From contig CBDETY010000003.1 in NCBI GenBank assembly GCA_965243025.1, forward strand, positions 5,312,001 to 5,376,000: a stretch of DNA of 64,000 nucleotides. Reading direction: 5' to 3'. The stretch comes from Candidatus Latescibacterota bacterium (lineage in GTDB: Bacteria > Latescibacterota > UBA2968 > UBA8231). Under the pieces are notes generated by a model. It searched no databases and was not told the origin of the DNA. It was given only the letters and a program-made list of their open reading frames with translations. A program made the position numbers and the translations under genes. Shown here piece after piece: positions 40,211-56,841 of this stretch; position 1 is the first letter of the stretch, and each line of letters starts with the position of its first letter.

Positions 40211-40342
40211 TTTCGGTGCTCCACCAGGTGTGGTGGCGATAATCTCTTCCGGCGGGGCGCCGCTGCCAAATCGTGCGGGCAGGCAGGAAGACGTGGCAGG
40301 GGAATGCAGGTGGCCCTGGATCGTCTGAATCCTCTGCGGCGG

Positions 40343-40714
40343 TCATCCCCGGGCAAGGAAATGAATAACGAACCCGACGATACCGCCTGCGGCACCGCTG
40401 AGGGTGAGAACCAGCCCGATAACCTTCCACATGGTTTCGACCCCCATCTTGCCGGTCAACCCGGTGGCAAGCGTCTTGATGTCCCCGGCCTGGCGATGCA
40501 AGTCATCCTGAACGGCGTGCATCAGCAGATCGACGGTTTCCTTGTCCGATTTCTTTTCGATCTCGTGCTCGATAATGGAAAGACGAGTCTGAACCTCGCG
40601 GCGGTAATCTTCGAGGATGCCGCGGAATTCGTTGCGCCAGGTGTCGAATGTGTGGGCGAGGAGGCGCTCCCCCTGCTCACAGTCGAGGTCCGTGGAGAAA
40701 TGTGGTTTTTCCAT
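40343..40714 (-). CDS. Small coiled-coil protein with C-terminal membrane anchor
   Basis: 123 aa; helical charged body and VIGLVLTLSGAAGGIVGFVIHF tail; AAGGA before ATG; island promoter motif upstream. Confidence 0.7.
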   Translation of the reverse strand: MEKPHFSTDLDCEQGERLLAHTFDTWRNEFRGILEDYRREVQTRLSIIEHEIEKKSDKETVDLLMHAVQDDLHRQAGDIKTLATGLTGKMGVETMWKVIGLVLTLSGAAGGIVGFVIHFLARG

Positions 40715-40830
40715 CGAGATCCTTCGTTTGAGTGAAATCAGACATCCGGATTCGCCTGAACCCAGTTGGAGATTTCAAGGGGAGTATGGAGATCCTGTGG
40801 TCAGGCCAACCCAATGCTTCAGGGGGTACT

Positions 40831-40856
40831 TACCGGATCGGGGGATAGGGTGTCGG
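40831..40856 (-). promoter_or_regulatory. CCGACAC-N13-CCGGTA motif, copy 1
   Basis: reverse complement of taccgg-N13-gtgtcgg; points toward 40714 gene. Confidence 0.65.
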
Positions 40857-40910
40857 AGACGCGGCAAAAGGAAAAAAAGTCTCTTAGAAAGGACCTCCCC
40901 ACAAAAAAAA

Positions 40911-40936
40911 CCGACACTTTTTCCGGGGTTCCGGTT
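40911..40936 (+). promoter_or_regulatory. CCGACAC-N13-CCGGTT motif, copy 2
   Basis: about 100 nt upstream of 41038 gene; divergent from copy 1. Confidence 0.65.
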
Positions 40937-41037
40937 AGTAAACACTTGCATCAACAAAACCCCGGCCGAGCGGAGCGTAACAAAACAGTTGTGACATCCC
41001 GCGGCCACCACACCCATAATAGGGGAGAACTTGAACC

Positions 41038-42216
41038 ATGCGACTTCTGCATCGCCCGGCAAGTCTCAAGGGCCTGAACATTCAGAGCCTCAAAAACCAG
41101 GGATTCGACGCCTACCAGCACGGATTCAAGCCGGAGGACCAGAACAACCTGGCCGCCATCTGGAGCCGAGTCACCGGTGCCGTTTCCAGCTTTCAGGACG
41201 GGAACCAGATGGACATCTGGCTGGCCCTGACCCTGGAAGGGGACGACCGTGTGTTTCCTCCTCCCAATACACACGACTGGAAAGCCCTGCAGCTGGAGAC
41301 CTACCAGCGGGAATCCTGGTACAACAACCCGAACCACGCCTTCTACAGCGACATCAGGGACATCGTCAACTACATCCGGAACAGCAGCCGCGCCGGGTCC
41401 AGGCTGAAGGGCATCCGCTGGAATCACGAATACGGGCCGGTGGTCTGGAAGCTGGGCAGCGAGTGGACCGACTATGCCCAGGAACACGCGGCGTCGGACT
41501 ACAATGTCTGCATGAACCACCGGGCGACCGAATGGTGGAACTTCCGCAAGGCCATCGCGCCGAACACGGACGAGCCCGAAGATCGGCAACTGAAGGCAAA
41601 CGCCGCCTACAACAACCCGACGGCTCCGTGGAACGGGTGCGAATATGCCGAATGTCGCAGGCTGTACAGGAAGCTGGTCGACTTCCAGTGCGATGTTCAG
41701 GCCAGGATGGTCGGCCATGTATCCGATCTTCTGACCAACATCAGCTCCAGCTTGAAGCTCATCGTCTACCCGCCGGCCCAGGGGCCGACCGTCCACGGCA
41801 AGACGGAATACACCCTGGACATGAGCCTGAACGGCTTGACCGACAAGCCGAACATCATTTGGGAAATGGGTGACTGGGATTTCCGCGAAGAACCCTACGT
41901 CGCTCTCAGGGCCTGGGCCCGCCAGGCATCGAACGCGGGCGCTCCCTACTTCTTCACGCTTCAGCAGTCCATAGAGCGGTCAGGGTTCCAGGCCCGGCGG
42001 GATCGCATCGAGCAGCTTGTCGCCAACCGGTTCCTAAAGGACGAGGACGGCAACGACCTGGAGAACACCGAGGGCATCACCCGGCCGTGGGACGATTCCT
42101 TCGGGTTTTGGAGCAATTGGACCACGTCCCTGGGAAATGACGGGAATAACATCGATGCCACCCAGCAGGCGGGCTACGTCTCCGACCTCAGGAGTGCGCT
42201 CAACGAACACGGGTAG
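41038..42216 (+). CDS. Uncharacterised TIM-barrel-like 'GIRWNHE' protein, paralogue 1
   Basis: 392 aa, GGGGAG RBS; aligns by eye with 47551 and 53998 products. Confidence 0.85.
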   Translation: MRLLHRPASLKGLNIQSLKNQGFDAYQHGFKPEDQNNLAAIWSRVTGAVSSFQDGNQMDIWLALTLEGDDRVFPPPNTHDWKALQLETYQRESWYNNPNHAFYSDIRDIVNYIRNSSRAGSRLKGIRWNHEYGPVVWKLGSEWTDYAQEHAASDYNVCMNHRATEWWNFRKAIAPNTDEPEDRQLKANAAYNNPTAPWNGCEYAECRRLYRKLVDFQCDVQARMVGHVSDLLTNISSSLKLIVYPPAQGPTVHGKTEYTLDMSLNGLTDKPNIIWEMGDWDFREEPYVALRAWARQASNAGAPYFFTLQQSIERSGFQARRDRIEQLVANRFLKDEDGNDLENTEGITRPWDDSFGFWSNWTTSLGNDGNNIDATQQAGYVSDLRSALNEHG

Positions 42217-42258
42217 CAGGCAGGCAGGAACCCGACAGGGAAGACAAGGCTGAACGAG

Positions 42259-42302
42259 GAAGGCCCCACCCCCCAGGCAGGAGGTGGGGCCTTCTGGTTT
42301 TT
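42259..42302. terminator. Intrinsic terminator between convergent genes
   Basis: gaaggccccacc / ggtggggccttc 12-bp stem followed by tggttttt. Confidence 0.75.
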
Positions 42303-42316
42303 GTCCCGCATAGGAG

Positions 42317-43339
42317 TCATTCCAGATTCTGGGTTTTGACCTGGCCCCAGGTCCGGCTTCTGACGGCGGCCGTCGGGGGATCCTGCGAGGTCGGCAAGAA
42401 CTTCACGGAGTAACTCCTGCTCGAGACCGGACTGCTGAAGTAAGCGATCTGGTCTCCGGCCGGGCTCCAACTGGGCCGGAGGCTCCATTGTCCATCGGAC
42501 GTCAGTTGCCGGATGTCCTGCAGGTCCGGCCCCTGGGCCTGAAAGATTTCGTAGACATACCCTTCGAGCTTCAGGGAGAACGCCAGCCGTTGGCCATCCG
42601 GGGACCAGGACGGGGCATAGATTCCGGACAGGTTGTCGCCGATCTCCCAAAACTCGCCCCCGAACCACTCATGGCCGAACCAATCCCAGACGTAGAGGCG
42701 CGTGCTTGGAACGAAACCGTCGTCGAGGCCGTAGTCCGGTTGTGTGTAGAAAAACGCCAACCGCCCGGACGCAGGCGACCAGCTGACGGTCTCAGGCTCG
42801 CAATCCGGCGTTGCACGATGCCGGCCGGTTTCGGGATCCACAACGCCGGCGTACCCGTGCTGAGCCGTCCGCATGCCCCACCCTTCGACAGTCAGGTACA
42901 GGATGCCGATGGACCACCAGGCAGTCACGTCATAATCCAGGTAACTCAGGGCAATCTCCTGGGTGTTCTGGCCGTCGACCGTCTGCAAGTAGACGACGGG
43001 AACGATTTCACCTTCCCGTATTTCACTTTGCCAGCGGGCAATGCGGTCTCCATCTGGAGACCAGTCCACGGCCCGTCCGTCTCCGACAGGCCGGCGGGGG
43101 CTGTTTTCCGCTGGTTCCTGAACGAAAACCTGCTCCATGTGGTGGAACAGGATCAGGTCCCCTGCGGGAGACCATTTCGGATGCTGCCCGGGCCCCAGGA
43201 TCGTTTCCTCATGGCTGTAGGCGTCCATTACTACCAACTGGCCGTCGATGTCGTGGACCAGTCGGTCGCCGGAAGGGGACCACGACAGGCTTTCCGCGCA
43301 GGCGGAAACAGCGGCCAGGACCAGAAAAGCAGTTATCAT
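42317..43339 (-). CDS. Exported TolB-like (PD40) beta-propeller with WGxxK tail
   Basis: signal peptide; repeated WSPxG motifs; ends TAAVRSRTWGQVKTQNLE; ATGA overlap with upstream kinase. Confidence 0.85.
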   Translation of the reverse strand: MITAFLVLAAVSACAESLSWSPSGDRLVHDIDGQLVVMDAYSHEETILGPGQHPKWSPAGDLILFHHMEQVFVQEPAENSPRRPVGDGRAVDWSPDGDRIARWQSEIREGEIVPVVYLQTVDGQNTQEIALSYLDYDVTAWWSIGILYLTVEGWGMRTAQHGYAGVVDPETGRHRATPDCEPETVSWSPASGRLAFFYTQPDYGLDDGFVPSTRLYVWDWFGHEWFGGEFWEIGDNLSGIYAPSWSPDGQRLAFSLKLEGYVYEIFQAQGPDLQDIRQLTSDGQWSLRPSWSPAGDQIAYFSSPVSSRSYSVKFLPTSQDPPTAAVRSRTWGQVKTQNLE

Positions 43340-45411
43340 GAAGGCGACCCACCTCCGGGAGCTTCGGGCTTTCTTCGTTGACCGGCTTGCTTGGACACGG
43401 CTGCTGTTGCCGAATGCGGGCCAGGTGGTTTTGCCATGCGGTAGCCGACGCGATTCACAGTGAAGACAAACGTGGGATTGCGTGCATCGTCGCCCAGCTT
43501 CTGGCGAATGTCCTTTATATAGGCGCGTATGACCTGCGGATTTGTGGAGTGATCCGAACCCCAGACCCGTTCTCCCAATTGACGGTGGGTCAACACCCGC
43601 CCGGCTTTGATGGAAAGCTCGAGAAGCAGCCTGTATTCCGTCGGGGACAGCTGCACCGCATGGCCGGCCAGGGTCACGGAGCGTTCGTCGTAGTCGATCG
43701 TCAGGTCTCCCAGGCGAAAAGGTGAAGGGGTAACAGCTTGCGGGTATTGCGGGTCGTCGACTGCCTCAATGCGCGACCACTCTGTTCCGCTCTCACCTTG
43801 GTACGAGAGTGCGGACTGCCCGCCGCCTTCCTCGGCAACGGGAATGGTGAAGGTGATTCGCGTCCCCCCTTTGGGTACGTCGCTCTCCGCCCATATCCGG
43901 CCGCCGTGGGCTTCGACTATGCCCTTGCAGATCGCAAGATCCAGACCGCTGTTCCCTGCGTCTTCCTCCCCGTCCTCGCGATCCCTCCTGTAGAATTTCG
44001 TGAACAGGTTCTGCAGGTGCTCCGCAGATACACCCCTGCTTTCGTCTGCTACAGAGATCGCCACGTGGAAATCCGAAGCCCGCGCGGTCACCCTGATAGT
44101 GGACGTATCGGGCGAGTACCTCGAGGCGTTGGCAAAGAGTTTGTCCAGCACCTGGAGGATGCGAAGCTTGCCCGCCTGGATGCGGGGCAGGTTGGGCGGG
44201 AGGTCGAACTCGATGCTGTTCCCCGCCCCACCGCCCAGGAAGGTGCTTCTCGCGTGATCGACCAAGTCATTGAGGTCCGCCGGCTCGGGCGTTAACGACA
44301 GGGCCCCGGTCTCGAGGTGGGTCATGTCGAGAAGGTCGTTGATCAGGCCACGCAGAAGGTCCGCCTGACCGTCGATGATCTGAAAAAGCTGACGCGCCTC
44401 CTCAGGATCAGGGGGAGACGGGGCGTCCAGGGCCATGGCCGTCGAACCCTTGATGGCGGAAAGCGGCAGCCGCAGCTCGTGGCTCGCCTTGGAGAGTAAC
44501 TCGGAGCGCACCTTTTCCAACTCTCCCAGCGGCGTGATGTCCTGGATGACGGCAACAGCGGACAGGATCTGCCCGTCTTGCGAGTAAATCGGGGTGGCGT
44601 TTACGAGCGCGGTAACCGTCTCGCCGTCGGCATGATGGAAAACCAGCTGTTCGGCGCGCACGGTCGCTCCCTTGTCAAGCACCCGCTCCAGAGGGAGCTC
44701 ATCGGTCGCCACCGGATTTCCGGAAGGACGGCTGCAGGTCATCGCCTCGCGGTACTGATCCAGGGTAATGCCGGGCTCTGGAAGGACCCCCATGATCCGC
44801 TCCCCCTCGTAATTGACCGAGAGGACGGTCCGCGTCTCCGCGTCGACGACCAGCACCCCCACGGGCGAGGTGCTGATCAGCGCCTCCAGGTCCGCCCGGG
44901 CCCGATGTTCGCAGCTGTACCTGCGGGCGTTGGCGATGACGGCTGCCGCGTGCGACGCGAACAGTACGAGGATCTCTTCGTCCTCTGGAGTGAACTCCTG
45001 CCCGCCATCCTTCTCGGTCAGATAGAGGTTGCCGAAATTCTTTCCGAGATGCCGGATCGGAATCCCGAGGAAGGTATTCATCGGCGGGTGGTTTTCGGGA
45101 AAGCCGACCGATTCGGGATGCTCGCGGAGATTTGCCAGGCGCAACGGTTTCTGACTCCTGTTCACGTACCCGAGCAGCCCCCTCCCCCCCGGCCCCTCCT
45201 CCTTTATACGTTGACGTTCCTCGGGAGTGATGCCGGAGGTGACGAACTGCTGCAAATCCCTGGTGCCGTCGAAGACCGCAAGCGCGCAGTAACGGGCGTT
45301 GATCAGCAGCCGTGCGTTGTCTACAACCTCTTTCAGGATGGTAACGAGGTCGAGGCTCAGGGCGGTGCGGAGGCTGGCCTCGCTCAGCCGGGAGATCCGA
45401 GCTCCACGCAT
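43336..45411 (-). CDS. GAF-PAS-HisKA-HATPase protein fused to OmpR-type winged helix, no receiver domain
   Basis: FPENHPPMNTFLG GAF; VNATPI PAS; SHELRLPL H-box; LSPTEYRLL...FTVNRVGYRM wHTH; start approximate. Confidence 0.85.
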   Translation of the reverse strand: MRGARISRLSEASLRTALSLDLVTILKEVVDNARLLINARYCALAVFDGTRDLQQFVTSGITPEERQRIKEEGPGGRGLLGYVNRSQKPLRLANLREHPESVGFPENHPPMNTFLGIPIRHLGKNFGNLYLTEKDGGQEFTPEDEEILVLFASHAAAVIANARRYSCEHRARADLEALISTSPVGVLVVDAETRTVLSVNYEGERIMGVLPEPGITLDQYREAMTCSRPSGNPVATDELPLERVLDKGATVRAEQLVFHHADGETVTALVNATPIYSQDGQILSAVAVIQDITPLGELEKVRSELLSKASHELRLPLSAIKGSTAMALDAPSPPDPEEARQLFQIIDGQADLLRGLINDLLDMTHLETGALSLTPEPADLNDLVDHARSTFLGGGAGNSIEFDLPPNLPRIQAGKLRILQVLDKLFANASRYSPDTSTIRVTARASDFHVAISVADESRGVSAEHLQNLFTKFYRRDREDGEEDAGNSGLDLAICKGIVEAHGGRIWAESDVPKGGTRITFTIPVAEEGGGQSALSYQGESGTEWSRIEAVDDPQYPQAVTPSPFRLGDLTIDYDERSVTLAGHAVQLSPTEYRLLLELSIKAGRVLTHRQLGERVWGSDHSTNPQVIRAYIKDIRQKLGDDARNPTFVFTVNRVGYRMAKPPGPHSATAAVSKQAGQRRKPEAPGGGSPS

Positions 45412-45786
45412 GTCGTTTCCTGTGCTCCAACTCGGTCCGGGCATGGGTTTGCCCGTCCGTGTTTCGTGGATTTGCCGGTTGAGGATATATCCCACACTTC
45501 CGCATAGCTCATATAACGCGTAACAATTGGTGAGTGTCAAGAATACATTGCCAAGTTATCGCAAAACCCTGAATTAATGGAGATAGTAACGGATTTGAAT
45601 CTTACCTGGTCCGTACTGAGGGCCTATGATTTCACTATGTATCCCCTATATGTATGAGCATGTTTCACTATAGTCTCTGAAAGTCGCTGCTCCTGAAAAC
45701 AATCTTGAAAAACTCCATTTGAACTGACCTTAAGTCGGCCATAGGTTTTCATTTTTTCGAAAATGGGATCTATGGAGGAGGACGGA

Positions 45787-46125
45787 ATGACGGACGAGGT
45801 AACCAAGGCGGCCCTGACTCCTGCCAGGCGCCGCCTGGTGGAAATGATGCAGGAGATCAATTTCGGACGCATAGAAAGACTGGACGTACGGGAAGGGGAA
45901 CCGTTATTCGATCCACCGCCGATGGCGGTGCGTCAAATGGTGTTCGGGAAGAAAAACGGGCCGAACCAGATTCGGAGCCAGGACGGCTACGCACTTAAGA
46001 AGAAGGTGGCGGAATTGTTCGAGGTATTCGACCGGGAGCAGACGTTCCGGGTTCTGGAGCTCGTGATCGACGACGGGCTGCCCCTCCGCATGACCGTGGG
46101 GGAAGGCTCTACTGATTGTTGCTGA
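45787..46125 (+). CDS. Small hypothetical protein, copy A
   Basis: GGAGGAG RBS; paralogue of the next gene (ALTPARRRLVEMMQEINFGRIE). Confidence 0.8.
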   Translation: MTDEVTKAALTPARRRLVEMMQEINFGRIERLDVREGEPLFDPPPMAVRQMVFGKKNGPNQIRSQDGYALKKKVAELFEVFDREQTFRVLELVIDDGLPLRMTVGEGSTDCC

Positions 46126-46130
46126 AAAGG

Positions 46131-46156
46131 CCGACACTTTTTCCGATTTGCCGGTA
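46131..46156 (+). promoter_or_regulatory. CCGACAC-N13-CCGGTA motif, copy 3
   Basis: upstream of the small-gene/sigma unit. Confidence 0.65.
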
Positions 46157-46227
46157 TGGAACGGTAGCTGAACCGGGATCAAGGAAACCATGGAATTGCA
46201 CGGCGTGACCCCGACGGATCACAAGGC

Positions 46228-46560
46228 ATGACGGATGGTATAACCAGGGCGGCCCTGACTCCTGCCAGGCGCCGCCTGGTCGAAATGATGCAGGAGATCA
46301 ACTTCGGGCGCATCGAAGGGCTCGAAGTACGCTACGGGGAGCCGGTGCTGGATCCACCGCCAAAGGCCGCCCGCCAGATGGTATTCGGCAGGAGGAACGG
46401 GACGAACGCGGGGGACGCCAACCATGGAATTACACTCAATAAGAAAGTGGCGGAATTGTTCGAGGTCTTCGACCGGGAGCAGACGTTCCGGGTCCTGGAG
46501 CTCGTGATTGACGATGGCATGCCCGTCCGCATGACCGTGGCGGACGGGGATCGGACCTGA
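46228..46560 (+). CDS. Small hypothetical protein, copy B
   Basis: tandem paralogue of 45787-46125. Confidence 0.8.
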   Translation: MTDGITRAALTPARRRLVEMMQEINFGRIEGLEVRYGEPVLDPPPKAARQMVFGRRNGTNAGDANHGITLNKKVAELFEVFDREQTFRVLELVIDDGMPVRMTVADGDRT

Positions 46561-46613
46561 ATCCGGGCCCCAGACAATAGACACGGTATCACACCAGACA
46601 ACCGGCTGGCCGC

Positions 46614-46677
46614 AGAAGCGGAGGTCGTTGTGGGTGTCGCCAAACCGGCGCCTCACAAGGCTTCCGCTTCTTTGTTT
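46614..46677 (+). promoter_or_regulatory. Long hairpin leader / attenuator-like structure before sigma gene, copy 1
   Basis: 25 pairs (13+5+7, with G-U) around a 6-nt loop, then TTGTTT. Confidence 0.55.
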
Positions 46678-46741
46678 GAGGCGGCCTTGCCGGTCCAGGT
46701 CGACCCCTGCGCCCGCTTCTGCCCGGCCCGGAGGAGGCGCA

Positions 46742-47332
46742 ATGAGTTTCGACGCCAGGCAAGGCGGCATCGACCGCTATGCCGTTCAGCACATCCGGTT
46801 CAAGGCCCGGCAGCTGGCCGGGCAGGCAGGTTTCGCGGCCAGCGAGCGCAAGGACCTGGAACAGGAGCTGTTCCTGGACCTGTTGACCCGGCTTCCCCAG
46901 TAGGACCCCGAGCGCGGGCGGCGCACCACCTTCATCTCCCGGGTGGTGGCCAACCGGGTTTCCACCCTGATCGAGTCACAGAAGGCGGGTTTGCGGGATT
47001 ACCGTCTCCGCGGCGGTTCGTTGAACGAATGCCTGGAGGACGAGGAAGGGGGTACGGTGGAGCGGCTGGACACCCTGGATGGGGAGGACCACCTGCTGCG
47101 CACCGGGGCGGTGTCGCGGCCGTGGGAGGAGCGGCAGGCCCTGGCCATCGACCTGGCGGCGTTGATGGAAACCCTTCCGCCGGAGTGGGCAATGCTGTGC
47201 CGTCGTTTGCGAGTGGAGACGGTCTCGGAGATTTCCCGGGATACGGGGATTGCGCGGGGGACAATTTACGAGTGGATGGGGAAGCTGCGGCAGATCTTCG
47301 AGGAGGCGGGCCTGAGGGAGTACCTCGATTAG
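46742..47332 (+). pseudogene. Sigma-70/ECF-like factor with in-frame TAG at codon 54
   Basis: GGAGGAGG RBS; TAG at 46901-46903 where the intact copy has TAC; same length as 53044-53634. Confidence 0.85.
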
Positions 47333-47436
47333 GTACCGAAGTTCGGGCTTCCCGATATAGGAAAGGGGAAAGGTGGTTCGGGGGGCTCAAGTGGGTCGTG
47401 GGCTTCGAGATGGTCCGGGGAAAGAGGAAAGGAGTC

Positions 47437-47462
47437 CCGACACTTTGCTTGTGGTTCCGGTA
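47437..47462 (+). promoter_or_regulatory. CCGACAC-N13-CCGGTA motif, copy 4
   Basis: upstream of 47551 gene. Confidence 0.65.
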
Positions 47463-47550
47463 AGAAACAAGCGCATACGTAAACAGCGGCAGGGGGGCAC
47501 AAACCTGTTGTGTCGCCCCTTTTCCGAGACACCTCCCAAGGAGGAAAAGA

Positions 47551-48630
47551 ATGAAAGCGCTTTACGGACGAGGAATACTAGTGGACCTGGAAGTTCGGGA
47601 CGCCAGTGAGTACGGCTTCGACACCTTTCAGTTGAATCAAATTCATTCGGGCACGGATATCGATGACATAATCGGCGAGGAGGTGGGAAATATCGATGGT
47701 TGGTTCAATGCTGGAGGTCCTTACAACCTCATTCTCCCCATCCAGTTCTGGGGCGATCCATACGCCTGTCCCAATTACACCAGTGCAAGTGCCGCAAGCG
47801 GTCAAGTAAACATAATTGACCGGGAGGAATGGTACGATAACACCGCCCATGCTTTTTACACGGATCTGAAAATCCGTATCGAAGAGGTGGAAGAATTGGT
47901 TGGATGTCGATTGGTGGGGATACGGTGGAATCATGAAATCGCGCCCAATCTGTTCAAAGAAGGACCGAGGTGGCATGATCACGCTTTGGAAAATCATGAA
48001 ACGGAATACAATTCAGTGTATGAAAACAGTAATGGGGAGGAACTGTGGGAGCAGTGGCGAGAGGCCGTTCCTTCGATTGGATCCAAAAACGCTTATGACG
48101 GGACAAATCTTCCCCAGATTTGGGCACAGTTCCACCCCGAAGTGCCAAGGCTTTACCGCCGGTTTGTGGATTACCAGGTGAATTTACAGAAGACAATGAT
48201 CGAAATCCTGCGTAGCAAGATCGCCAGTGTAAACAGCGATCTGAAATTCATTGTCTATACGCCGCAGCAAGGACCCAACTCGGTCTATGCGAAAGAGGAG
48301 TATACCCTGGACCTGGATGGAGTAGGAAGTCCGGCCAACCCGGTTTGGGAAATCTCTGCCTGGGACTCAGGTTCCCAAGCGGGAAATAAAAGTCTAATCG
48401 ACAATTGGGCAGGACAGGCAGGAGGCAACGATTACTACTTCGTAATGCAGCAGGGGAGCAGCCTTTCGACTGAAAGTGTGGTATCTTACATCGAAAACCT
48501 CCAGAACCCTGGAGTAACCAATCAGCCAGATCACTTTGCTTTCTGGTCAAAATGGAGGAGATTACAAGATCCGGATGCACTATCCGAGCAGAGACAGTAC
48601 ATGAACAAGGTCAAGGAGGCCTTGGGGTAA
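47551..48630 (+). CDS. Uncharacterised 'GIRWNHE' protein, paralogue 2 (most divergent)
   Basis: AAGGAGG RBS; GFDTFQ, HAFYTD, GIRWNHE, RLYRRFVDYQ, PQQGP, EYTLD, FAFWSKW shared with paralogues. Confidence 0.85.
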   Translation: MKALYGRGILVDLEVRDASEYGFDTFQLNQIHSGTDIDDIIGEEVGNIDGWFNAGGPYNLILPIQFWGDPYACPNYTSASAASGQVNIIDREEWYDNTAHAFYTDLKIRIEEVEELVGCRLVGIRWNHEIAPNLFKEGPRWHDHALENHETEYNSVYENSNGEELWEQWREAVPSIGSKNAYDGTNLPQIWAQFHPEVPRLYRRFVDYQVNLQKTMIEILRSKIASVNSDLKFIVYTPQQGPNSVYAKEEYTLDLDGVGSPANPVWEISAWDSGSQAGNKSLIDNWAGQAGGNDYYFVMQQGSSLSTESVVSYIENLQNPGVTNQPDHFAFWSKWRRLQDPDALSEQRQYMNKVKEALG

Positions 48631-48808
48631 CGGGTTTGCGGCACCCTATCAACCCCCCACACCACTTCAACCTTCGGAGCCGCTTGGGAGACCCATAGCC
48701 CAGGCAGTTGTAAAAAAATGAACTTGCGGAAGGTAAGAAAAGGATAGGTTGCTGATGCTTTTGTGGATGGATTTCGTCACATGGATCCTGACCAGGAGAT
48801 GACCGGCG

Positions 48809-49756
48809 GTGGAACCAGGAACAGTCTTCACACCAGACAACAATCACGGAAACAAATTGCACATCGCGTCGATCGCCATTGTCCTGTGCCTGGTTCCAGG
48901 GCTGGTCATCGGTAATCCTGAAAAAACGGTGGATCTGCCTTCCGGCAGTTCCATGAGGTTTGTGCGCATTGAGGCGGGTTCCTTTCTGATGGGGACCGCG
49001 GAGAACCGCCAAGAAGAGATTGGTAAGTACGCCGGCAATTATCGCGAATTCCCCCAGCACCGAGTCACCCTCACCAAGGGGTTTTACCTGGGGAAATACG
49101 AGGTCACCCGGGAGCAGTGGGTGGCGGTGATGGGAACAGAGCCTGAAGAGTGGAAAAACTTTCCCGCTTCGTGGAGAGGATCCCAGAGACCTGCTACGAC
49201 AATTTCCTGGTTGCAGGTTCAGGAGTTCATGGGCTTTCTAAGTGAATTCTCCGGTAGGACGTTTCGGTTGCCCACCGAGGCGGAGTGGGAATACGCGGCA
49301 CGAGGGGGAACGGAGACGCTCTGGGTATCGGGAGACGACCAGTCCGAGGCATGGAAACACATGTGTAGACGCACCCTTCGATGCGATGTCGGAAGCGACC
49401 CTTTGTTCGGTAACCCCTGGGGGTTGTTCGACATGCAGGGGAACGTGTGGGAGTTAGTGTTCGATGGCCACTTCAGGGAGTATGCTGAAGAAGTTGTGGA
49501 CCCGGTCGGACCTTCTGCCCGGTTGGAAGGCTTGGCAATTACCCGAGGGGGGGACTCTGGTAACGTAGGAACTGATGATCAACCAGAGTATGTTGTCATT
49601 TATCACTCCCGACCTGCATTCCGTGGTTTATGGGGCATTGATCGGGAAGGTGGTTCCTGGGTCGGCTTTCGCGTCTTGTTAGAGCTCGAAGAAGACCCCA
49701 CGTCCGTTGAAATTCAGGGGTGGGGTGCCATGAAAGAGTCACAGCTTTCGAAATAG
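48809..49756 (+). CDS. Exported FGE-sulfatase (SUMF1-like) domain protein with WGxxK tail
   Basis: FLMGT, PQHRVTL, RLPTEAEWEYAARGG, GLFDMQGNVWE, GFRV; ends TSVEIQGWGAMKESQLSK; start uncertain. Confidence 0.9.
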   Translation: MEPGTVFTPDNNHGNKLHIASIAIVLCLVPGLVIGNPEKTVDLPSGSSMRFVRIEAGSFLMGTAENRQEEIGKYAGNYREFPQHRVTLTKGFYLGKYEVTREQWVAVMGTEPEEWKNFPASWRGSQRPATTISWLQVQEFMGFLSEFSGRTFRLPTEAEWEYAARGGTETLWVSGDDQSEAWKHMCRRTLRCDVGSDPLFGNPWGLFDMQGNVWELVFDGHFREYAEEVVDPVGPSARLEGLAITRGGDSGNVGTDDQPEYVVIYHSRPAFRGLWGIDREGGSWVGFRVLLELEEDPTSVEIQGWGAMKESQLSK

Positions 49757-49783
49757 TCCTGCCGAAATACCCCAGATAGATTT

Positions 49784-49890
49784 ACACCAGACAACCGGCT
49801 GGTCGGGGAAAGCTGTTCCTGGACCTGTTGACCCGGCTTCCCAGTACGACCCGGAGGGCGGGCGGCGCACCACCATCATCTCCCGGGTGG
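49784..49890 (+). pseudogene. Deleted remnant of the leader plus sigma module (third copy)
   Basis: acaccagacaaccggctgg joined to agctgttcctggacctgttgacccggcttcccagtacgaccc...tcccgggtgg from the sigma coding region. Confidence 0.8.
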
Positions 49891-49944
49891 GTTGAAAAAG
49901 GTTCGCAAAATCCAAGAGTTGGCAACGCCTTTCGGGGGACAGAA

Positions 49945-51051
49945 TCATGGCTGTATGTACAACGGTAAGGCCTTCTTGGTTTCACCCCAACTCCGGGGTT
50001 CGACTCGGGTGGGATGAGAAGAAAGACCAGAAACGTCAATCACAATTAAACGGGGACCGCGAAAAAAGGCGATCTTGTCTCCCCGGGGGCTCCACTCGGG
50101 AACCCGTTCCTGTTCTTCAGAATGGGTTATTCGGGTCAGCCCCGTTCCATCCGATCCAACGATGAATATCTCTTGATTGTTCCTTTCCATCCTTCCCGCA
50201 AAAACCAGGCGCCGGCCATCAGGAGACCATGAAGGGAACGAGACAGATTCCATGTCGGTTACTTTCGCTGTACTGGCATGGTACTCCCAACTACGGCGAT
50301 CCAGCGAAAGATCTATCATGTGAATCCCAACATCCAAGCCCAGGTGACTCAACCGGTATTTTGGATCCGATTCTTTGCCGGGCACGGGAAATGCCAATTT
50401 TTCAGATGCTGGCGACCATACGCCTCTATACTGCAATGGGGTGCCAGGATTGAACTTTATCTCCGGGTTCCCTACCCTCGAATCGACGTGCGATTTTTTT
50501 TTCAGATCGATAAGGTGTTCTGAAGTTCCCTCCGGGATAAGGTTCCAGACTTCATACGCAATACCCATGGGCCACCAGGCGTATATGTCGAGCGGCTCAA
50601 TGAAAGGGCCCCATACTTCGAAAGCTTCCCTCGGATTGTCTCCATTGGAATCTGCCAGGTGAACAACCATCGCATCCAATTTATGGCCCCTGTCGTTTAC
50701 CTGTTTTCTCGTCGAGAAGGCAAAGCGAGTGCCGTCGGGTGACCACAGAGGAGTTTGTCCTGTGGCCACCGGGAGGGGGTCCGAGCCGTCAGCGTTGACA
50801 AGGAAGATCCTTCCTGAGAGAACGAACAAGATCTGATCGCTGGTTGGAGACCATTTCGGCGCCCATCCAACGCCGATCTCGATGCTTTGTAAGGCATCCA
50901 CATCGACAACGGTGAGGTTGAAATTGAGCGAGTGAACCAGCCTGTCCCCTTTGGGCGACCACGATATCGATTGACCTTGGGCCGCGGAGTTGAAAGCGAA
51001 CAGGAAGACCAGGAAGGTGTTTCGGAGGGGTCCCAACTTCCGTTTTTCCAT
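49945..51051 (-). CDS. Exported TolB-like (PD40) beta-propeller with WGxxK tail
   Basis: signal-like segment FLVFLFAFNSAAQG; WSPxG repeats; ends TRVEPRSWGETKK...; ORF open to 51171, start uncertain. Confidence 0.85.
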   Translation of the reverse strand: MEKRKLGPLRNTFLVFLFAFNSAAQGQSISWSPKGDRLVHSLNFNLTVVDVDALQSIEIGVGWAPKWSPTSDQILFVLSGRIFLVNADGSDPLPVATGQTPLWSPDGTRFAFSTRKQVNDRGHKLDAMVVHLADSNGDNPREAFEVWGPFIEPLDIYAWWPMGIAYEVWNLIPEGTSEHLIDLKKKSHVDSRVGNPEIKFNPGTPLQYRGVWSPASEKLAFPVPGKESDPKYRLSHLGLDVGIHMIDLSLDRRSWEYHASTAKVTDMESVSFPSWSPDGRRLVFAGRMERNNQEIFIVGSDGTGLTRITHSEEQERVPEWSPRGDKIAFFRGPRLIVIDVSGLSSHPTRVEPRSWGETKKALPLYIQP

Positions 51052-51205
51052 GCTCAAGCCAATTCTCAAATCTGAGGTTACCCCGGCCGGAATTCCGGGG
51101 GATATGGGCCCTTTGATTTCGGCATGGTTGGACATCCTCCTTTTCTCTTCTTCAAGAAATGAAGTGTCCACGAAATCGGGTCAACTCCTGTCTAAATTCC
51201 CTGGA

Positions 51206-51252
51206 GAAAGCAGAAAGGCCGTCCGCTCCGCCCGGATGGCCTTTCTGCTTTC
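51206..51252. terminator. Strong hairpin between tandem propeller genes
   Basis: gaaagcagaaaggccgtccg / cggatggcctttctgctttc 20-bp stem. Confidence 0.65.
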
Positions 51253-51268
51253 CCACCATCAGAGCCGG

Positions 51269-52345
51269 TCAACGAGGCTGATTTTTGAGAGTGCCCCATC
51301 CGGTGGACTCGACTCCGGACGCAATAAGAGGGTCTACGTCTATCCACTCCACAGACCCGGTACAGGAGTCGCAGTAGTAGGCGATCTTGTTTCCAGTCGG
51401 ACTCCAACTGGGCTGGGAATCCCAGCCGGGCCGGGCTGTCAGGCGCGTCAGGCCCGAGCCGTCTGCGCCGACAATGGATATCTTCCGGGCATCGTCTTCT
51501 TCTATCCAGTGATTGATAGCCAAGTACCTGCCATCGGGAGACCAGGCAGGTCTGAAAAGGCCGGTCAAGTCGGTAACCTTGAAAACGTCGCCTTGGCGAA
51601 TCCTGTTATCCATCTGCTCGAAACTCCCCGAACCATCTACTACATAGGTGCCGTTTTCAAGCAGGGGCGTAGGTCCAGGAAATTCCTTTGCAAAATCTTC
51701 ATCTGCAAAAAAGGCCAACTTGCCCGAGGCCCCCGACCAACTTGCCGTATATGGTACCCACCCACGATTTCCTGTTTCCGGATCAAACACTTCTGAATTG
51801 TATTCATGGAACTCTATATTTCCCCAAAAATGTCTGAAATTGATACCTATGGACCACCAGGCGCTGATACCTGATACCCCTTCGCAAAGCAGGGAATGCT
51901 CCTGCCGGTTTCCTCCATCCTCATCCTGGATAACTACCACGAACTCAGGTTGGTAGCCGGTGTCGTAGCATCTTGCCTGTCGTATGAAGGAAAAGGCAAG
52001 GCGTCTGCCATCAGGAGACCAATGGGGGGACCCACCTGTTTCTGCTATCAGGCGGCGGTCCGTGCCGTCTGCATTGATGACAAACACAGGCCCCGGAGGC
52101 TCAGGCCAGGAATCGACGACGACGAACAGAATCCGATCGCCTGCCGGAGACCAATTCGGACCAGATCCCCTGCCGAGAGAAAGGGATTGACGGGTGTGGA
52201 CGTCAACGACCGTGAGTTCCTGTTCTTCCGGGAGCGAATAAACCAACCGGTCTCCTTGGGGAGACCATGAGATTGGTGTATTGGCTGCAAGCGGACAGAG
52301 GAGGACGATGACGATCAGTGTGCAGGAAACGATTTGGACAATCAT
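51269..52345 (-). CDS. Exported TolB-like (PD40) beta-propeller with WGxxK tail
   Basis: hydrophobic signal peptide; WSPxG repeats; ends SGVESTGWGTLKNQPR. Confidence 0.85.
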   Translation of the reverse strand: MIVQIVSCTLIVIVLLCPLAANTPISWSPQGDRLVYSLPEEQELTVVDVHTRQSLSLGRGSGPNWSPAGDRILFVVVDSWPEPPGPVFVINADGTDRRLIAETGGSPHWSPDGRRLAFSFIRQARCYDTGYQPEFVVVIQDEDGGNRQEHSLLCEGVSGISAWWSIGINFRHFWGNIEFHEYNSEVFDPETGNRGWVPYTASWSGASGKLAFFADEDFAKEFPGPTPLLENGTYVVDGSGSFEQMDNRIRQGDVFKVTDLTGLFRPAWSPDGRYLAINHWIEEDDARKISIVGADGSGLTRLTARPGWDSQPSWSPTGNKIAYYCDSCTGSVEWIDVDPLIASGVESTGWGTLKNQPR

Positions 52346-52514
52346 TATCATCCTGTTTCGGTCTGTTATAAAAAAGAATGAAAAAAAACCAACTCCTTGT
52401 AAGGGAGGTAAACTACCGAGTGGCCTCCGTAATATCATACTTTTGGACCGTCACAGGCAACGCCCTTTACTGACCGCCCGAACCGCCGCTATCATTATCC
52501 GCCATGCCCCCGAC

Positions 52515-52737
52515 CATGGACGCGAACAGGATCTGCGAGCTGCACGTACACATCGGCGGCTGTTTTACGCCGAGGATCTGATCCGCTTCGGCCGCGGCGT
52601 TTTCGAACAGGTCGACTGGACCAGCTTCTGCGACAGGTACGAGCACGCCTACGGCGAGGGGCCCGACGTTGCCCGACTGTATCGGAACGCCCTGTCGGGG
52701 TCCCCCGGCGGCGCCGACGGCTTCTGCCGCCACTTCT
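52515..52737 (+). pseudogene. Frameshifted duplicate of the 5' end of the deaminase gene at 56842
   Basis: near-identical to about 56850-57069; T4 instead of T5 at about 52563; fused to island repeat copy 2. Confidence 0.88.
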
Positions 52738-52915
52738 GCAAGAATAAAGTGGCGGAATTGTTCGAAGTCTTCGACCGGGAGCAGACGTTCCGGGTTCTGG
52801 AGCTCGTGATTGACGATGGCATGCCCGTCCGCATGACCGTGGCGGACGGGGAACGGACCTGAATCCGGCCCCCAGGCAATAGACACGGTCTCACACCAGA
52901 CAACCGGCTGGCCGC

Positions 52916-52979
52916 AGAAGCGGAGGTCGTTGTGGGTGTCGCCGAACCGGCGCCTCACAAGGCTTCCGCTTCTTTGTTT
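52916..52979 (+). promoter_or_regulatory. Long hairpin leader, copy 2
   Basis: same stem as copy 1; single change in the loop (ccaaac to ccgaac). Confidence 0.55.
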
Positions 52980-53043
52980 GAGGCGGCCTTGCCGGTCCAG
53001 GTCGACCCCTGCGCCCGCTTCTGCCCGGCCCGGAGGAGGCGCA

Positions 53044-53634
53044 ATGAGTTTGGACGCCTGGCAAGGCGGCATCGACCGCTATGCCGTTCAGCACATCCGG
53101 TTCAAGGCCCGGCAGCTGGCCGGGCAGGCAGGTTTCGGGGTCAGCGAGCGCAAGGACCTGGAACAGGAGCTGTTCCTGGACCTGTTGACCCGGCTTCCCC
53201 AGTACGACCCCGAGCGCGGGCGGCGCACCACCTTCATCTCCCGGGTGGTGGCCAACCGGGTTTCCACCCTGATCGAGTCACAGAAGGCGGGTTTGCGGGA
53301 TTACCGTCTCCGCGGCGGTTCGTTGAACGAGTGCCTGGAGGACGATGAAGGGCGTACGGTGGAGCGGCTGGACAGCCTGGATGGGGAGGACCACCTGCTG
53401 CGCACCGGGGCGGTGTCGCGGCCGTGGGAGGAGCGGCAGGCCCTGGCCATCGATCTGGCGGCGCTGATGGAAACCCTTCCGCCGGAGTGGCGCATGCTGT
53501 GCCGCCGTTTGAGAGTGGAGACGGTCTCGGAGATTTCCCGGGATACGGGGATTGCGCGGGGGACAATTTACGAGTGGATGGGGAAGCTGCGGCAGGTCTT
53601 TGAGGAGGCGGGCCTGAGGGAGTACCTCGATTAG
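53044..53634 (+). CDS. Sigma-70/ECF-like RNA polymerase sigma factor (intact)
   Basis: region 2-like KDLEQELFLDLL...YDPERGRRTTFISRVV; region 4 HTH TVSEISRDTGIARGTIY; GGAGGAGG RBS. Confidence 0.85.
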   Translation: MSLDAWQGGIDRYAVQHIRFKARQLAGQAGFGVSERKDLEQELFLDLLTRLPQYDPERGRRTTFISRVVANRVSTLIESQKAGLRDYRLRGGSLNECLEDDEGRTVERLDSLDGEDHLLRTGAVSRPWEERQALAIDLAALMETLPPEWRMLCRRLRVETVSEISRDTGIARGTIYEWMGKLRQVFEEAGLREYLD

Positions 53635-53737
53635 GTGGTACCGAAGTTCGGGCTTCTATAGGAAGGGTGGGCTACATGGCGCGTGGACTCCAGTGGGTCG
53701 TCGATTCGAGATAGGTCGGGAAAAGAGGGAAGGAATT

Positions 53738-53763
53738 CCGACACAATGCTTGAGGTTCCGGTA
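53738..53763 (+). promoter_or_regulatory. CCGACAC-N13-CCGGTA motif, copy 5
   Basis: upstream of 53998 gene. Confidence 0.65.
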
Positions 53764-53997
53764 AGAAACAAGTGCATCCAACAAAATCACGACTAGGCAG
53801 CCAAGTAAAAAAATGCTGCGGGTCTCGTTTACTGGCCAACACGAAAGGAGAGGATGATCCAATTGGGAATTATATACCAAAGTCATCAGAGGAAAATATA
53901 TATATATGAAATGAATACACACTAAACGATGCATTGAGGCAGGTTGTTTTTTTTTCCGATCCCAACGTAGCACACAACTCGAAAAAGGAACAAAAAA

Positions 53998-55179
53998 ATG
54001 AGACTTCTCCACCGACCCGGAAGCATGAAGAACCTGGGTATAGCCTCCCTGCGGGATCAGGGATTTGACACATTCCAGTCCGGGGCCAAACCCGACGAGG
54101 CCGGGGGTGTGGATGACATCTGGACCAGAATGCAAAACGAGGTTTCCGCCTTCGATGACGAGGACCCTCTGGACATCTACTGGGCCCTCAACCTCGAAGG
54201 AGACTCCCATGTGTTTCCCAACGGGTACACTTGGAAGGGGATGCAGTTGGAGACGTACGACAGAAACGGGTTTTATGATTCTCCCAGCCACCAGTTCTAC
54301 TCCGACGTCCGCACGATCGTTACCGACCTGAGAGACTCCTCTCGGGCCGGGACCCGACTGAAGGGAATACGGTGGAATCACGAATACCGTCCCGTGGTGT
54401 GGAAACTCGGCACCGATTGGGCCACGTACGCCATGGAGCACAACCCGGAAGATTTCCAGACTGTAGCCGTGCACCGAGCAACCGAATGGGAATATTATCG
54501 CAGGGCTTGCGCTCCCTACACCAACGTGATCGATGACCACAAGCTGGGCAGCAAAGACGCCTACGACGGGCCGGACTGGGCGCCATGGAACGGTTCCAAC
54601 TACGTCGCGGTCAAAAGGCTCTACAAGGATCTGGTTCATTTTCAGGCCAATTGTCAGGCAAAGATGATCGGGCACATAGCCACCATCCTCGGTACTATCG
54701 ACTCGAGTCTCAGGCTGATCGTCTTTCCGCCGGCGCAAGGACCTTCCGATTGGGGCTTGAAGGAGAATACTCTGGACCTGACCCGGAACAGCCTCGCTGC
54801 CAGAACAAACATCAAATGGGAGTTCACCGACCAAGACGGCCTCGGCGACGGACATATCGTCAACTACAAGGCATGGGCAAGACAGGCCATGGACGCTCAT
54901 GACCACGTCGAGTATTTCTTCACCCTGAAGCAGCTGATCAGTGCGGACGATTTCCAGCAACGGCTCGACAGGGTGGAGAAGCACGTGGCCAACTGCTTCT
55001 TCAAAGACGAAGACGGGAATGCTCTTCCAGGCACAAGTGATCTGGACAGACCCTGGAACGAGAGCTTCGGATTCTGGAGCCGGTGGCTCTCTTCTAACGC
55101 TGGCAACCCCAACATTTCCGTGGCCCAGCAGACGGAATATGCTCAGGAACTGAGAGACGCGCTGAACGAGCACGGCTAG
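53998..55179 (+). CDS. Uncharacterised 'GIRWNHE' protein, paralogue 3
   Basis: 393 aa; colinear with paralogue 1 from MRLLHRP to ALNEHG. Confidence 0.85.
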   Translation: MRLLHRPGSMKNLGIASLRDQGFDTFQSGAKPDEAGGVDDIWTRMQNEVSAFDDEDPLDIYWALNLEGDSHVFPNGYTWKGMQLETYDRNGFYDSPSHQFYSDVRTIVTDLRDSSRAGTRLKGIRWNHEYRPVVWKLGTDWATYAMEHNPEDFQTVAVHRATEWEYYRRACAPYTNVIDDHKLGSKDAYDGPDWAPWNGSNYVAVKRLYKDLVHFQANCQAKMIGHIATILGTIDSSLRLIVFPPAQGPSDWGLKENTLDLTRNSLAARTNIKWEFTDQDGLGDGHIVNYKAWARQAMDAHDHVEYFFTLKQLISADDFQQRLDRVEKHVANCFFKDEDGNALPGTSDLDRPWNESFGFWSRWLSSNAGNPNISVAQQTEYAQELRDALNEHG

Positions 55180-55204
55180 CAGGTTCCGTTTCTTATGGGG
55201 AACG

Positions 55205-55242
55205 AAAAGGGGGTGGCTGTGTCCCCAGCCACTCCCGTTTTT
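55205..55242. terminator. Bidirectional intrinsic terminator
   Basis: aaaa-gggggtggctg / cagccactccc-gttttt. Confidence 0.75.
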
Positions 55243-55257
55243 ATTCAGATTGCTTTT

Positions 55258-56322
55258 TCATTCCATGGGCAAAGCCAGCGACTTCTTGATTTCGCCCCAG
55301 CTGCTTGGCCTGATTCCGGTGGGCGTATCTACCTGCACGAACTTCAGGATACGACGCAGCGCCTGCCGGTCTGTCTGGCTGAAGTAGGCGATCTGATCGC
55401 CGGCAGGGCTCCAGTAGACTCCGACCTTATGTTGCGAATCGAACGTCAGGTGCCTGATCTGCTGAAGCGAATCACCTGAAGCAACGAGGATCTGTCCCTC
55501 GAGACTGAATGCCAGCCGTTGGCCGTCGGGAGACCAGGAAGAATTGGTATATCCCAGGTTTTGACCGATTTCCCACGGTGTCCCGCGCAGCTCCTTTACG
55601 AAGAGTCCGTGGGGGGGGACCCAATCGTCAGGCATCCCGAGCTCGGCATTCGAGAAAGCGTAGGTTTGTGTCCTGAAGTGATAGGCCAATCGTGAAGTGG
55701 CTGCCGACCAGCTCATGCTTCCGGGGCTGCATTCTGCTCCATCCACCACTCGCCGGTACGGATCCGGATCCGAATCCGGATCCAGAATCCTCGTGGATTT
55801 GTGCTCGGATGCACGTATCGCCCATCCATCCACGGATTGGTAGACGATTCCCAGCGACCACCAGTCGGTCACGTCGTAATCGAGGCGGTCCAGGACGACT
55901 TTCTTGTGGAGTTCTCCTTCGAGGTTTTCTATGAAGATCACCGGGGCGGGTTCTTCGTATTCCGAGTTTCTAACGGGCAGAAGCTGGGATTGCCAGTAGG
56001 CATAGCGGTCTCCGGACGGGGACCATCCCACCGCCTTGCCCTCCCCGATTCGTCGACGCCCCGAACCGCCCGCCTGCACGATGAACGTCTCCCACGTCAG
56101 TGTATTCCCCGTCCTGCTCTTGAGGGTGAACAAGATCTGGTCTCCGACCGGCGACCACGTCGGATCAGACCCGGGTCCGATGGAAGTGACCTGATGGCTG
56201 TAGGCGTCCACCACGAACAGCTCTTCTTCATCCACATATACCAGGCGATCTCCTTGCGGAGACCACGAAAGTTTTTCTGCCGAAACAGAAGTCGCGGCAA
56301 TGACTAGCAGAACAGTAATCAT
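55258..56322 (-). CDS. Exported TolB-like (PD40) beta-propeller with WGxxK tail
   Basis: signal peptide MITVLLVIAATSVSA; shares LDYDVTxWWSxGI with 42317 product; ends TGIRPSSWGEIKK. Confidence 0.85.
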   Translation of the reverse strand: MITVLLVIAATSVSAEKLSWSPQGDRLVYVDEEELFVVDAYSHQVTSIGPGSDPTWSPVGDQILFTLKSRTGNTLTWETFIVQAGGSGRRRIGEGKAVGWSPSGDRYAYWQSQLLPVRNSEYEEPAPVIFIENLEGELHKKVVLDRLDYDVTDWWSLGIVYQSVDGWAIRASEHKSTRILDPDSDPDPYRRVVDGAECSPGSMSWSAATSRLAYHFRTQTYAFSNAELGMPDDWVPPHGLFVKELRGTPWEIGQNLGYTNSSWSPDGQRLAFSLEGQILVASGDSLQQIRHLTFDSQHKVGVYWSPAGDQIAYFSQTDRQALRRILKFVQVDTPTGIRPSSWGEIKKSLALPME

Positions 56323-56364
56323 TTGGGTGTCCCATTTCCTGGGAACTGTAAGCCGTTGTGGTGT

Positions 56365-56760
56365 AGGGAGTTGCGATCTTAAAAAAACTAGCGTAGGACC
56401 CCTGTGATGCCTAACATTGAGTATCGAACTTCATGTACGGCTCCCCGGAAAGGGCACAAAGGTCCTACGATGCGAAATGTACGATCAAGAAGCGCTGGTG
56501 GCACAGGCACAGCAGGGGTTTGAGCAGCTGGAGACCTTCGTGGTAGAAGGAGCAGCCGGGCAGGAACTGCATGAGGTGGATCTCAAGTAGATATATGATT
56601 GAGTTGGGTGCTGCTTAATGGCTGGGGCACAGGCTGCTCATGGCGCAGATGCGCCAGGGCCGTGCGCGTGACTGGGCTCATTGCGCGCTGACTACCGTCG
56701 GCGAAGCCTGTCGAGCCGTGTCGCGAGAAACGCTCAGTTAGACCATCTTCCGGGTAGCGG
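56365..56760 (+). mobile_element. Possible decayed IS transposase 5' remnant (ISKra4-like)
   Basis: short ORF MYDQEALVAQAQQGFEQLETFVVEGAAGQELHEVD at 56477 then LGHRLL in another frame, recalled as similar to ISKra4 N-termini; broken by stops. Confidence 0.3.
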
Positions 56761-56841
56761 ACCAAGCTACAATAGGGGTCAAAAGGGGTCAAACTTTTTC
56801 AGGTTCCTTTTTTTTCAGGTTCCTTTAAGGTTTAAAGGACC

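Follow-up and report, generated by a model that had tools for sequence, protein, structure and literature searches.

Which genes does a sigma factor serve when it is encoded in an inserted island, among genes that do not look viral? This question is raised by a 64,000-nt stretch of DNA (the window; contig CBDETY010000003.1) from the genome of a Candidatus Latescibacterota bacterium (G000, the genome under study). The island encodes one intact sigma factor, three members of an orphan family with the motif GIRWNHE (GIR1 to GIR3), a small membrane protein (memb123), and a small gene (small110) that stands before a second, broken copy of the sigma gene. An earlier note on this DNA had pointed to the bipartite motif CCGACAC-N13-CCGGT and had proposed that the sigma factor uses it to drive a private programme. 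We think that the sigma factor probably does read this motif. Our reading, which is drawn from sequence comparisons, is that a sigma-promoter pair derived from phages has probably been reused for orphan cargo genes in a mobile island.

The motif has five matches in the window, all with the same spacing, just as the earlier note described, except that the first site starts at 40832 and not at 40831. The sites are listed here with their scores from a weight matrix (described below):

40832-40856, minus strand: promoter-like motif, site 1; faces memb123; matrix score 18.1 bits
40911-40935, plus strand: promoter-like motif, site 2; faces GIR1; matrix score 24.2 bits
46131-46155, plus strand: promoter-like motif, site 3; faces small110 and sigma copy 1; matrix score 25.2 bits
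47437-47461, plus strand: promoter-like motif, site 4; faces GIR2; matrix score 27.4 bits
53738-53762, plus strand: promoter-like motif, site 5; faces GIR3; matrix score 26.6 bits

In 100 dinucleotide-preserving shuffles of the window, the mean number of matches was 0.04 and the maximum was 1; none of the 100 reached 5. Across both strands of the whole genome (6,801,905 bases), there are nine matches, and five of the nine are inside the 16.5-kb island. The remaining four are scattered, have G+C-rich spacers, and are near the number expected from base composition (about 3, by a hand estimate).

When the five island sites are aligned, both boxes are invariant and nothing else is: the spacers and the flanks vary. 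All five continue past the second box with A or T and then G (CCGGT[A/T]NG). All five are also intergenic, 69-232 nt 5' of the next gene on the same strand (as placed by crude gene calls), and they face the genes that had been named for them: the three GIRWNHE genes, the small membrane protein, and the small-gene/sigma unit. The earlier caution that sites 4 and 5 share a duplicated block is correct (47404-47476 matches 53705-53777 at 85%, and 46437-46736 matches 52739-53038 at 97%). Because these two sites belong to one block, the genome has four independent sites.

A sister genome (G002) has a version of the same island, and three promoters are orthologous between the two. Across these three pairs, 0 of 39 box positions differ, while 10 of 39 spacer positions do (Fisher p = 0.001), and the flanks are mostly unalignable. 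As judged from this comparison, the boxes of the motif are under purifying selection.

The leader of GIR3 that follows site 5 (53763-53997) is unusually long (about 230 nt) and A+T-rich, with a ATATATATAT run. It has no match in Rfam, and an Rfam scan of 39500-57500 gave nothing at E up to 0.1.

Is the motif also found with the sigma factor elsewhere? The sigma factor has homologues in 5 of 41 related genomes; the genome collection has 28 loci with homologues, and 49 viral contigs also carry them. A motif scan of the genome and of the neighbourhoods of homologous sigmas, which had been suggested as a check, finds that the motif accompanies the homologues both in other genomes and in viral contigs, in the general form CCGAC(A/G)N-N13-CCGGTA(A/G)GTA. 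In 10 of 10 genome loci (L009, L013-L020, and L022; in L011, it is on the minus strand), no more than about 30 nt separates the motif from the sigma stop codon. Among the loci from viral contigs, 30 of 46 have a match of over 13 bits that starts 0-20 nt past the sigma stop, and these comprise 10 distinct sequences. The sigmas of the remaining 16 are more distant, and visual inspection shows diverged versions of the two boxes at this position. Further copies of the motif stand before the operon of DUF2924 and the recombinase (L009, L020, and L046) and before the terminase operon (L022), and the viral contigs have an additional copy about 9.1 kb downstream of the sigma gene. Placement of the motif just after the sigma stop, with a start 5-30 nt past it, is seen in three or more phyla, in prophages as well as viral contigs.

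Leaving out G000 and G002, we built a weight matrix from 21 distinct sites that lie next to sigma homologues of other genomes, and we used it to scan all of G000. There were 11 matches above 14 bits, and the island sites took ranks 1, 2, 3, 4, and 6. (The rank-5 match, at 19.2 bits, lacks the CCGAC box.) This ranking ties the regulon to the sigma family and makes it private to the island, so the proposal of a private programme stands. In two other genomes, G004 and G020, the sigma and the motif are kept and a profile of the small protein matches nothing in the whole genome, so it is the sigma that is the constant companion of the motif.

The island has the sigma gene in three states:

53044..53634, plus strand: intact sigma, 196 aa; sigma-2 and a C-terminal helix-turn-helix
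46742..47332, plus strand: sigma copy 1, broken by an in-frame TAG at 46901-46903 (codon 54); 97% nucleotide identity to copy 2
49840..49890, plus strand: remnant of a third sigma copy, 51 nt; 92-94% to both sigma copies

The intact protein had been called a sigma factor of the extracytoplasmic function (ECF) type, and its build, with sigma-2 and a C-terminal helix-turn-helix, is indeed ECF-like. It matches PF04542 (Sigma70_r2) at 26.3 bits versus a cut-off of 24, and five of five homologues match as well. It also matches phrog_1740, which is annotated as "RNA polymerase sigma factor," and its closest solved relative is the ECF sigma factor RpoE of R. sphaeroides (E 0.008). Domain scans gave no match to other sigma regions (sigma-1.1 or sigma-3) in the 196 aa, and neither the small protein nor memb123 matched an anti-sigma family in domain and family scans. 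G000 has just two matches to the sigma family, both inside the island, and no second sigma locus or prophage of the family. Compared to G002, the ratio of nonsynonymous to synonymous substitution rates (dN/dS) is 0.40 for the sigma, 0.33 for small110, and 0.23 for memb123.

Several results weigh against our reading. On the general ECF model TIGR02937, the intact sigma scores 38.5 bits, which is under the cut-off of 42.9, with residues 27-184 aligned; this is why we call it ECF-like and do not claim proven membership. Its sigma-4 region (about 151-188) is matched by generic helix-turn-helix models alone, and Sigma70_r4_2 matches 2 of 5 homologues, at E 0.01. If we compare the variants of the -35 box (CGACA, CGACG, and CGTCA) to the residues of sigma-4, then sigmas with PRTT often go with CGTCA, but there are exceptions, so we make no claim of co-variation. 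Many of the supporting phage loci are near-copies of each other and hence are not independent. Also, the other GIR copies in G004, and all of the copies in another genome, G012, have no motif, so the cargo does not need the sigma. Finally, there is no motif 5' of the intact sigma gene (53044), which is preceded by a dead gene fusion. We could not recognize any promoter for this gene (a sigma-70-type scan of the island gave 5 sites versus 5.0 expected), and the sigma copy that does follow a motif (with small110, behind the site at 46131) is the one broken by the TAG.

These last results also bear on the earlier note, which had the intact sigma positively autoregulated. As written, this is unsupported. 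That a motif leads the small-gene/sigma unit is correct for small110 and incorrect for the intact sigma, as the unit holds the broken copy. In G002, the sigma that follows the motif and small110 is intact, which makes positive feedback plausible in the ancestral island. In the phage loci, we did not find the motif upstream of the small-gene/sigma pair. Separately, position 46903 is C rather than G in one contig of run X5, and with C the TAG codon of sigma copy 1 would encode Tyr; because the two copies are 97% alike, this contig may belong to copy 2.

Where did the pair come from? The small gene and the sigma, which the earlier note had linked as a pair to prophage-like elements, do form a prophage module: 45 of the 77 loci of sigma relatives include a homologue of the small gene, and the neighbourhoods include a serine recombinase, a LexA-like repressor, replication genes, and terminase. 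The upstream part of the locus usually runs DUF2924 protein, large serine recombinase, LexA/S24-type repressor, two unknown genes, small gene, and sigma. After the sigma come the motif and then a PD-(D/E)XK nuclease, AAA_24, DUF669, an ERCC4 nuclease, a RecD-like helicase, a methylase, and a primase. (In the L016 prophage, the AAA_24 protein, at 11993-13855, contains a LAGLIDADG intein and has 621 aa, versus 255 aa in L020.)

We propose that a sigma family of temperate phages with large serine recombinases was the source of the island's ECF-like, two-domain sigma. In these phages, the sigma gene, behind the genes for the LexA-like repressor and the conserved small protein, would most likely encode the master activator of the lytic programme, and the placement of the motif is most likely the layout of such an activator. 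The promoter after the sigma stop would lead the operon for replication and recombination, and more copies would lead the DUF2924/recombinase operon and the late or terminase operons. A comparison to 50,697 deposited phage records found relatives of the sigma in Wolbachia phage WO alone (7 records, at 23-29% identity). In our search of the literature outside subscription journals, we found no account of the sigma family, the motif, or the co-option.

The island itself is not such a prophage. Its extent and its remaining features are:

40316..56800: inserted island, about 16.5 kb; G+C 0.51-0.64 vs 0.69-0.74 in the flanks
40343..40714, minus strand: memb123, 123 aa, with a C-terminal membrane helix; no family match
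41038..42216, plus strand: GIR1, 392 aa, orphan GIRWNHE-motif family
42317..43339, minus strand: PD40 beta-propeller (PF07676) with a signal- or lipoprotein-like N-terminus
43336..45540, minus strand: GAF-PAS-HisKA-HATPase_c-Trans_reg_C protein, a histidine kinase fused to an OmpR-type DNA-binding domain
45763..46125, plus strand: small120, first copy of the phage-type small gene
46228..46560, plus strand: small110, second copy of the small gene
47551..48630, plus strand: GIR2, 359 aa
48809..49756, plus strand: FGE-sulfatase (SUMF1-like) protein with an N-terminal hydrophobic segment; PF03781, E 2.1e-33
49945..51171, minus strand: PD40 beta-propeller, by domain match
51269..52438, minus strand: PD40 beta-propeller, by domain match
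52517..52849, plus strand: dead junction, in which a copy of the 5' part of the deaminase-like gene (52517-52736) is joined to the 3' end of a small gene (52735-52849)
53998..55179, plus strand: GIR3, 393 aa
55258..56322, minus strand: PD40 beta-propeller, by domain match

In all, the island has memb123, three GIRWNHE genes, four PD40 genes, one FGE-sulfatase gene, one kinase/Trans_reg_C fusion, two small genes, and two sigma copies. A domain scan of the island's proteins found no recombinase, repressor, replication, terminase, or structural phage domains. Without these genes, the island is not a prophage of the type with a serine recombinase, a LexA-like repressor, and the small gene and sigma; it merely bears the regulatory module of one. 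Conversely, GIR, FGE, PD40, and memb123 are found in 0 of the 77 sigma-bearing loci, which agrees with the earlier description of the cargo as non-viral.

The island lies between a gene of the malate/lactate dehydrogenase family and an adenosine-deaminase-like gene. G002 has a 13.8-kb version of the island at the same site, and in G001, which belongs to the same genus, the two flanks are just 155 bp apart. This "empty" site (L095, G001:C9:130150-130620) keeps about 40 nt of the 3' part of memb123 (compare to 40403-40442 of the window), so the island was deleted in G001, rather than never having been present. Two genes of the G002 island are interrupted (L008, 11096-13743 and 13831-17666), probably by insertions: about 1.46 kb separates the two parts of the GIR3 homologue, and the PD40 homologue has been broken into three.

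How did the pair come to serve the cargo? The four cargo-linked sigmas group together (support 97/90) in a tree of 31 sigmas, and their group is nested among prophage sigmas from Acidobacteriota and Thermodesulfobacteriota. A single nested group points to one capture. In G004 and G020, the sigma gene is followed by the motif and then by the memb123 gene. In the same two genomes, GIR genes have the motif upstream, and beside the motif is a remnant of the 3' end of the sigma gene, which suggests that the promoter spread by copying of the junction between the sigma gene and the promoter. The 51-nt sigma remnant in the window fits this way of spreading.

The duplicated block has a history of its own. 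At the dead junction, 52517-52736 matches 56849-57069, the 5' end of the flanking adenosine-deaminase-like gene, at 95-98%, with one base missing. The gene order in this part of the island (small110, sigma, promoter, GIR2, FGE, two PD40 genes, fusion, sigma, promoter, GIR3) is what would be expected if a circular copy integrated into a resident island by a single crossover in the sigma region. In G020 (L010, 4612-5691 and 8014-8418) and G004 (L011, 15771-16967), genes for DDE and rve transposases intersperse the cargo cassettes, which would fit spread by transposition.

Under the mechanism that we propose, one lineage captured the sigma-promoter pair once, and the pair would now drive the GIRWNHE proteins and memb123, with the FGE-like and PD40 propeller genes carried along. 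Once made, the sigma of G000 would direct RNA polymerase to the five island promoters and to no others in 6.8 Mb. Its sigma-4 would read CCGAC(A/G) and its sigma-2 would read CGGTA. We infer both the binding of the motif by the sigma and the positions of transcription starts, which are predicted to be about 5-12 nt downstream of CCGGTAAG at the island sites. A broader version of this account combines several claims: that there was a single capture by a mobile cassette of a sponge-associated lineage; that the result is an orthogonal switch with about 20 informative bases and no off-target in 6.8 Mb; that the promoter spread via the junction of the sigma 3' end and the promoter; that the small protein is a new kind of sigma partner; and that the phage family has an undescribed system of lytic control in at least three phyla. 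This whole set is slightly more likely to fail in some part than to hold jointly.

The signs of decay in the island raise the issue of whether the circuit still works. The pair might have arrived with the island and the circuit might now be dead in G000, with motifs that linger because little time has passed. This would explain why one sigma copy has an in-frame TAG and another is down to 51 nt, why a dead gene fusion cost the intact sigma its motif-bearing upstream region, why the GIR3 and PD40 homologues of G002 are split, probably by insertions, and why G001 lost the island except for a scrap of memb123. However, the boxes are identical between G000 and G002 when the spacers have changed and the flanks are largely unalignable, and this argues against decay, as do the dN/dS values given above for the sigma, small110, and memb123. 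Furthermore, the arrangement of sigma, motif, memb123, and GIR persists in another genus, where the sigma is 61-62% identical. We consider it unlikely that the circuit is dead.

Even if the boxes are in use, they might be read by a DNA-binding protein that is not a sigma factor. The two boxes have CCG..A in common at 20 bp, or two helical turns, so they could be a direct repeat (CCGnCA / CCGGTA) for a host factor; or they could be bound by the OmpR-type domain of the kinase, as the island does encode a kinase with Trans_reg_C; or by the small protein, whose gene is so often beside the sigma. But the kinase is absent from the phage loci (there is one weak generic match in 77), and G004 and G020 keep the sigma and the motif without the small gene. 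The motif is also directional, always 5' of the next gene on its own strand, and its geometry is that of ECF promoters as described in PMC5758882. A reader other than the sigma is quite improbable. As to what switches the cargo on, satellites and some defence islands respond to the activators of their helpers, and the island promoters might mainly sense an incoming phage of the same family, whose sigma would activate them. The match between the island promoters and those of the phage family, and the lack of an evident promoter for the intact sigma, would both be expected. Yet the island's own sigma is under purifying selection, no cargo protein fits a defence model from PADLOC (0 of 11 island proteins match), and both of the sigma-family matches in G000 are in the island, with no family prophage or second locus. 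We would be very surprised if sensing of phages were the main role of these promoters. We therefore retain the reading in which the island's own sigma serves promoters that came with it from phages.

How does this pair compare to known systems? In PMC5758882, ECF promoters are described as having AAC at -35, CGT at -10, spacers of 14-17 bp, and a T-tract; GAAAC-N16-CGTA is one example. The sites in the island and beside sigma homologues have GAC-N16-CGGTA, often with a T-tract right behind the -35 box. By the criteria of PMC5758882, and in silico, this fits an (A/G)AC/CGT-like ECF geometry with a spacer of 14-17 bp. ECF sigmas of group 4, such as sigma-W, -X, -M, and -V of Bacillus subtilis, are also small two-domain proteins with small dedicated regulons and autoregulatory promoters (a putative one precedes small110 and the sigma in G002), and their promoters resemble the motif in having a -35 that ends in AC, about 16 bp, a -10 of CG(G)T, and a T-tract after the -35 (PMC5758882). 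In contrast, the island's -35 core is GAC rather than AAC and its -10 is long (CCGGTAAGTAAC); its sigma is under the TIGR02937 cut-off and has no recognizable anti-sigma; and the native home of the sigma is in phages, where no motif was found 5' of the pair.

Two other systems are similar in how they are used. The TcdR-type (group 5) sigmas are found at clostridial toxin and bacteriocin loci, and the locus is thought to be derived from a phage. There too, an island-encoded alternative sigma has private promoters before non-viral cargo, but our Pfam and NCBIfam scans found no sequence relation, the promoters differ, and the cargo of our island consists of orphan proteins. Xpf is the sigma-like late activator of the defective prophage PBSX, which still makes phage-like particles. 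It is another phage activator that was kept in a domesticated element, but our island has no phage genes for structure, replication, or recombination. As for Wolbachia phage WO, its relatives of the sigma are annotated as "RNA polymerase sigma factor" or "sigma-70 domain protein," but these sigma-70 domain proteins are only 23-29% identical.

Alternative sigmas with private regulons, and phage regulators that are kept after domestication, were already known. What this locus adds is a testable promoter consensus for an uncharacterized sigma family, which occurs in prophages of Acidobacteriota, Thermodesulfobacteriota, and Planctomycetota and in 49 viral contigs, and which has no relative above 30% identity in a deposited cultured phage. 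It would also be a clean case in which a regulatory pair from a phage has come to serve non-viral genes, and the intermediates can be seen: copied promoters with sigma remnants beside them, a duplicate that has broken, and a sister genome that has lost the island. The pair shows no detectable cross-talk across the 6.8 Mb of the genome, as is wanted in parts for orthogonal expression. And the common control of the GIRWNHE genes gives a handle on the function of an orphan family.

The GIRWNHE family is rare: there are 14 clusters in an index of 5.8 billion proteins, and 5 of 168 genomes from the phylum have it. These five comprise every genome with a cargo-linked sigma (four in all) and G012, which has neither the sigma nor the motif. 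The structural model of GIR1 has a mean predicted local distance difference test score (pLDDT) of 57.9 and is closest to GH5 TIM barrels, with template-modeling (TM) scores of 0.3-0.4. The invariant RWNHE could match the Asn-Glu acid/base motif of clan GH-A, and the GIRWNHE proteins are perhaps GH-A-like TIM barrels. Because the TM scores to GH5 are only 0.3-0.4, we view the glycoside-hydrolase reading as a lead and not as a result.

Another cargo protein, memb123, is 86% identical in G002 and 65% identical in G004, where its gene is directly downstream of the sigma and the motif. For the small protein, the model of small110 (mc59bfed296f8) is confident (pLDDT of 82) and has a tandem repeat, with one helix and three strands in each unit. 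The small protein matched nothing in Pfam, NCBIfam, or PHROG, and nothing among solved structures (the best PDB profile had E 0.27, the best Foldseek hit had E 0.37, and VIA-align wide gave a best Z of 3.2). Its nearest clusters in the atlas are unnamed and mostly viral.

The kinase fusion (43336-45540) joins the kinase directly to Trans_reg_C and has no receiver domain. A homologue that is 47% identical, at 1877-4195 of a second locus in G004 (L045), is beside FGE, GIR, and PD40 genes, where the sigma and the motif are absent. This suggests that the kinase fusion may be an alternative regulator of the same cargo.

The adenosine-deaminase-like protein that flanks the island (56842-58197, 451 aa) is matched by deaminase models across roughly its last third alone. 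It also has a weak likeness to the deaminase parts of the RdrB and CARF-ADA defence proteins in PADLOC.

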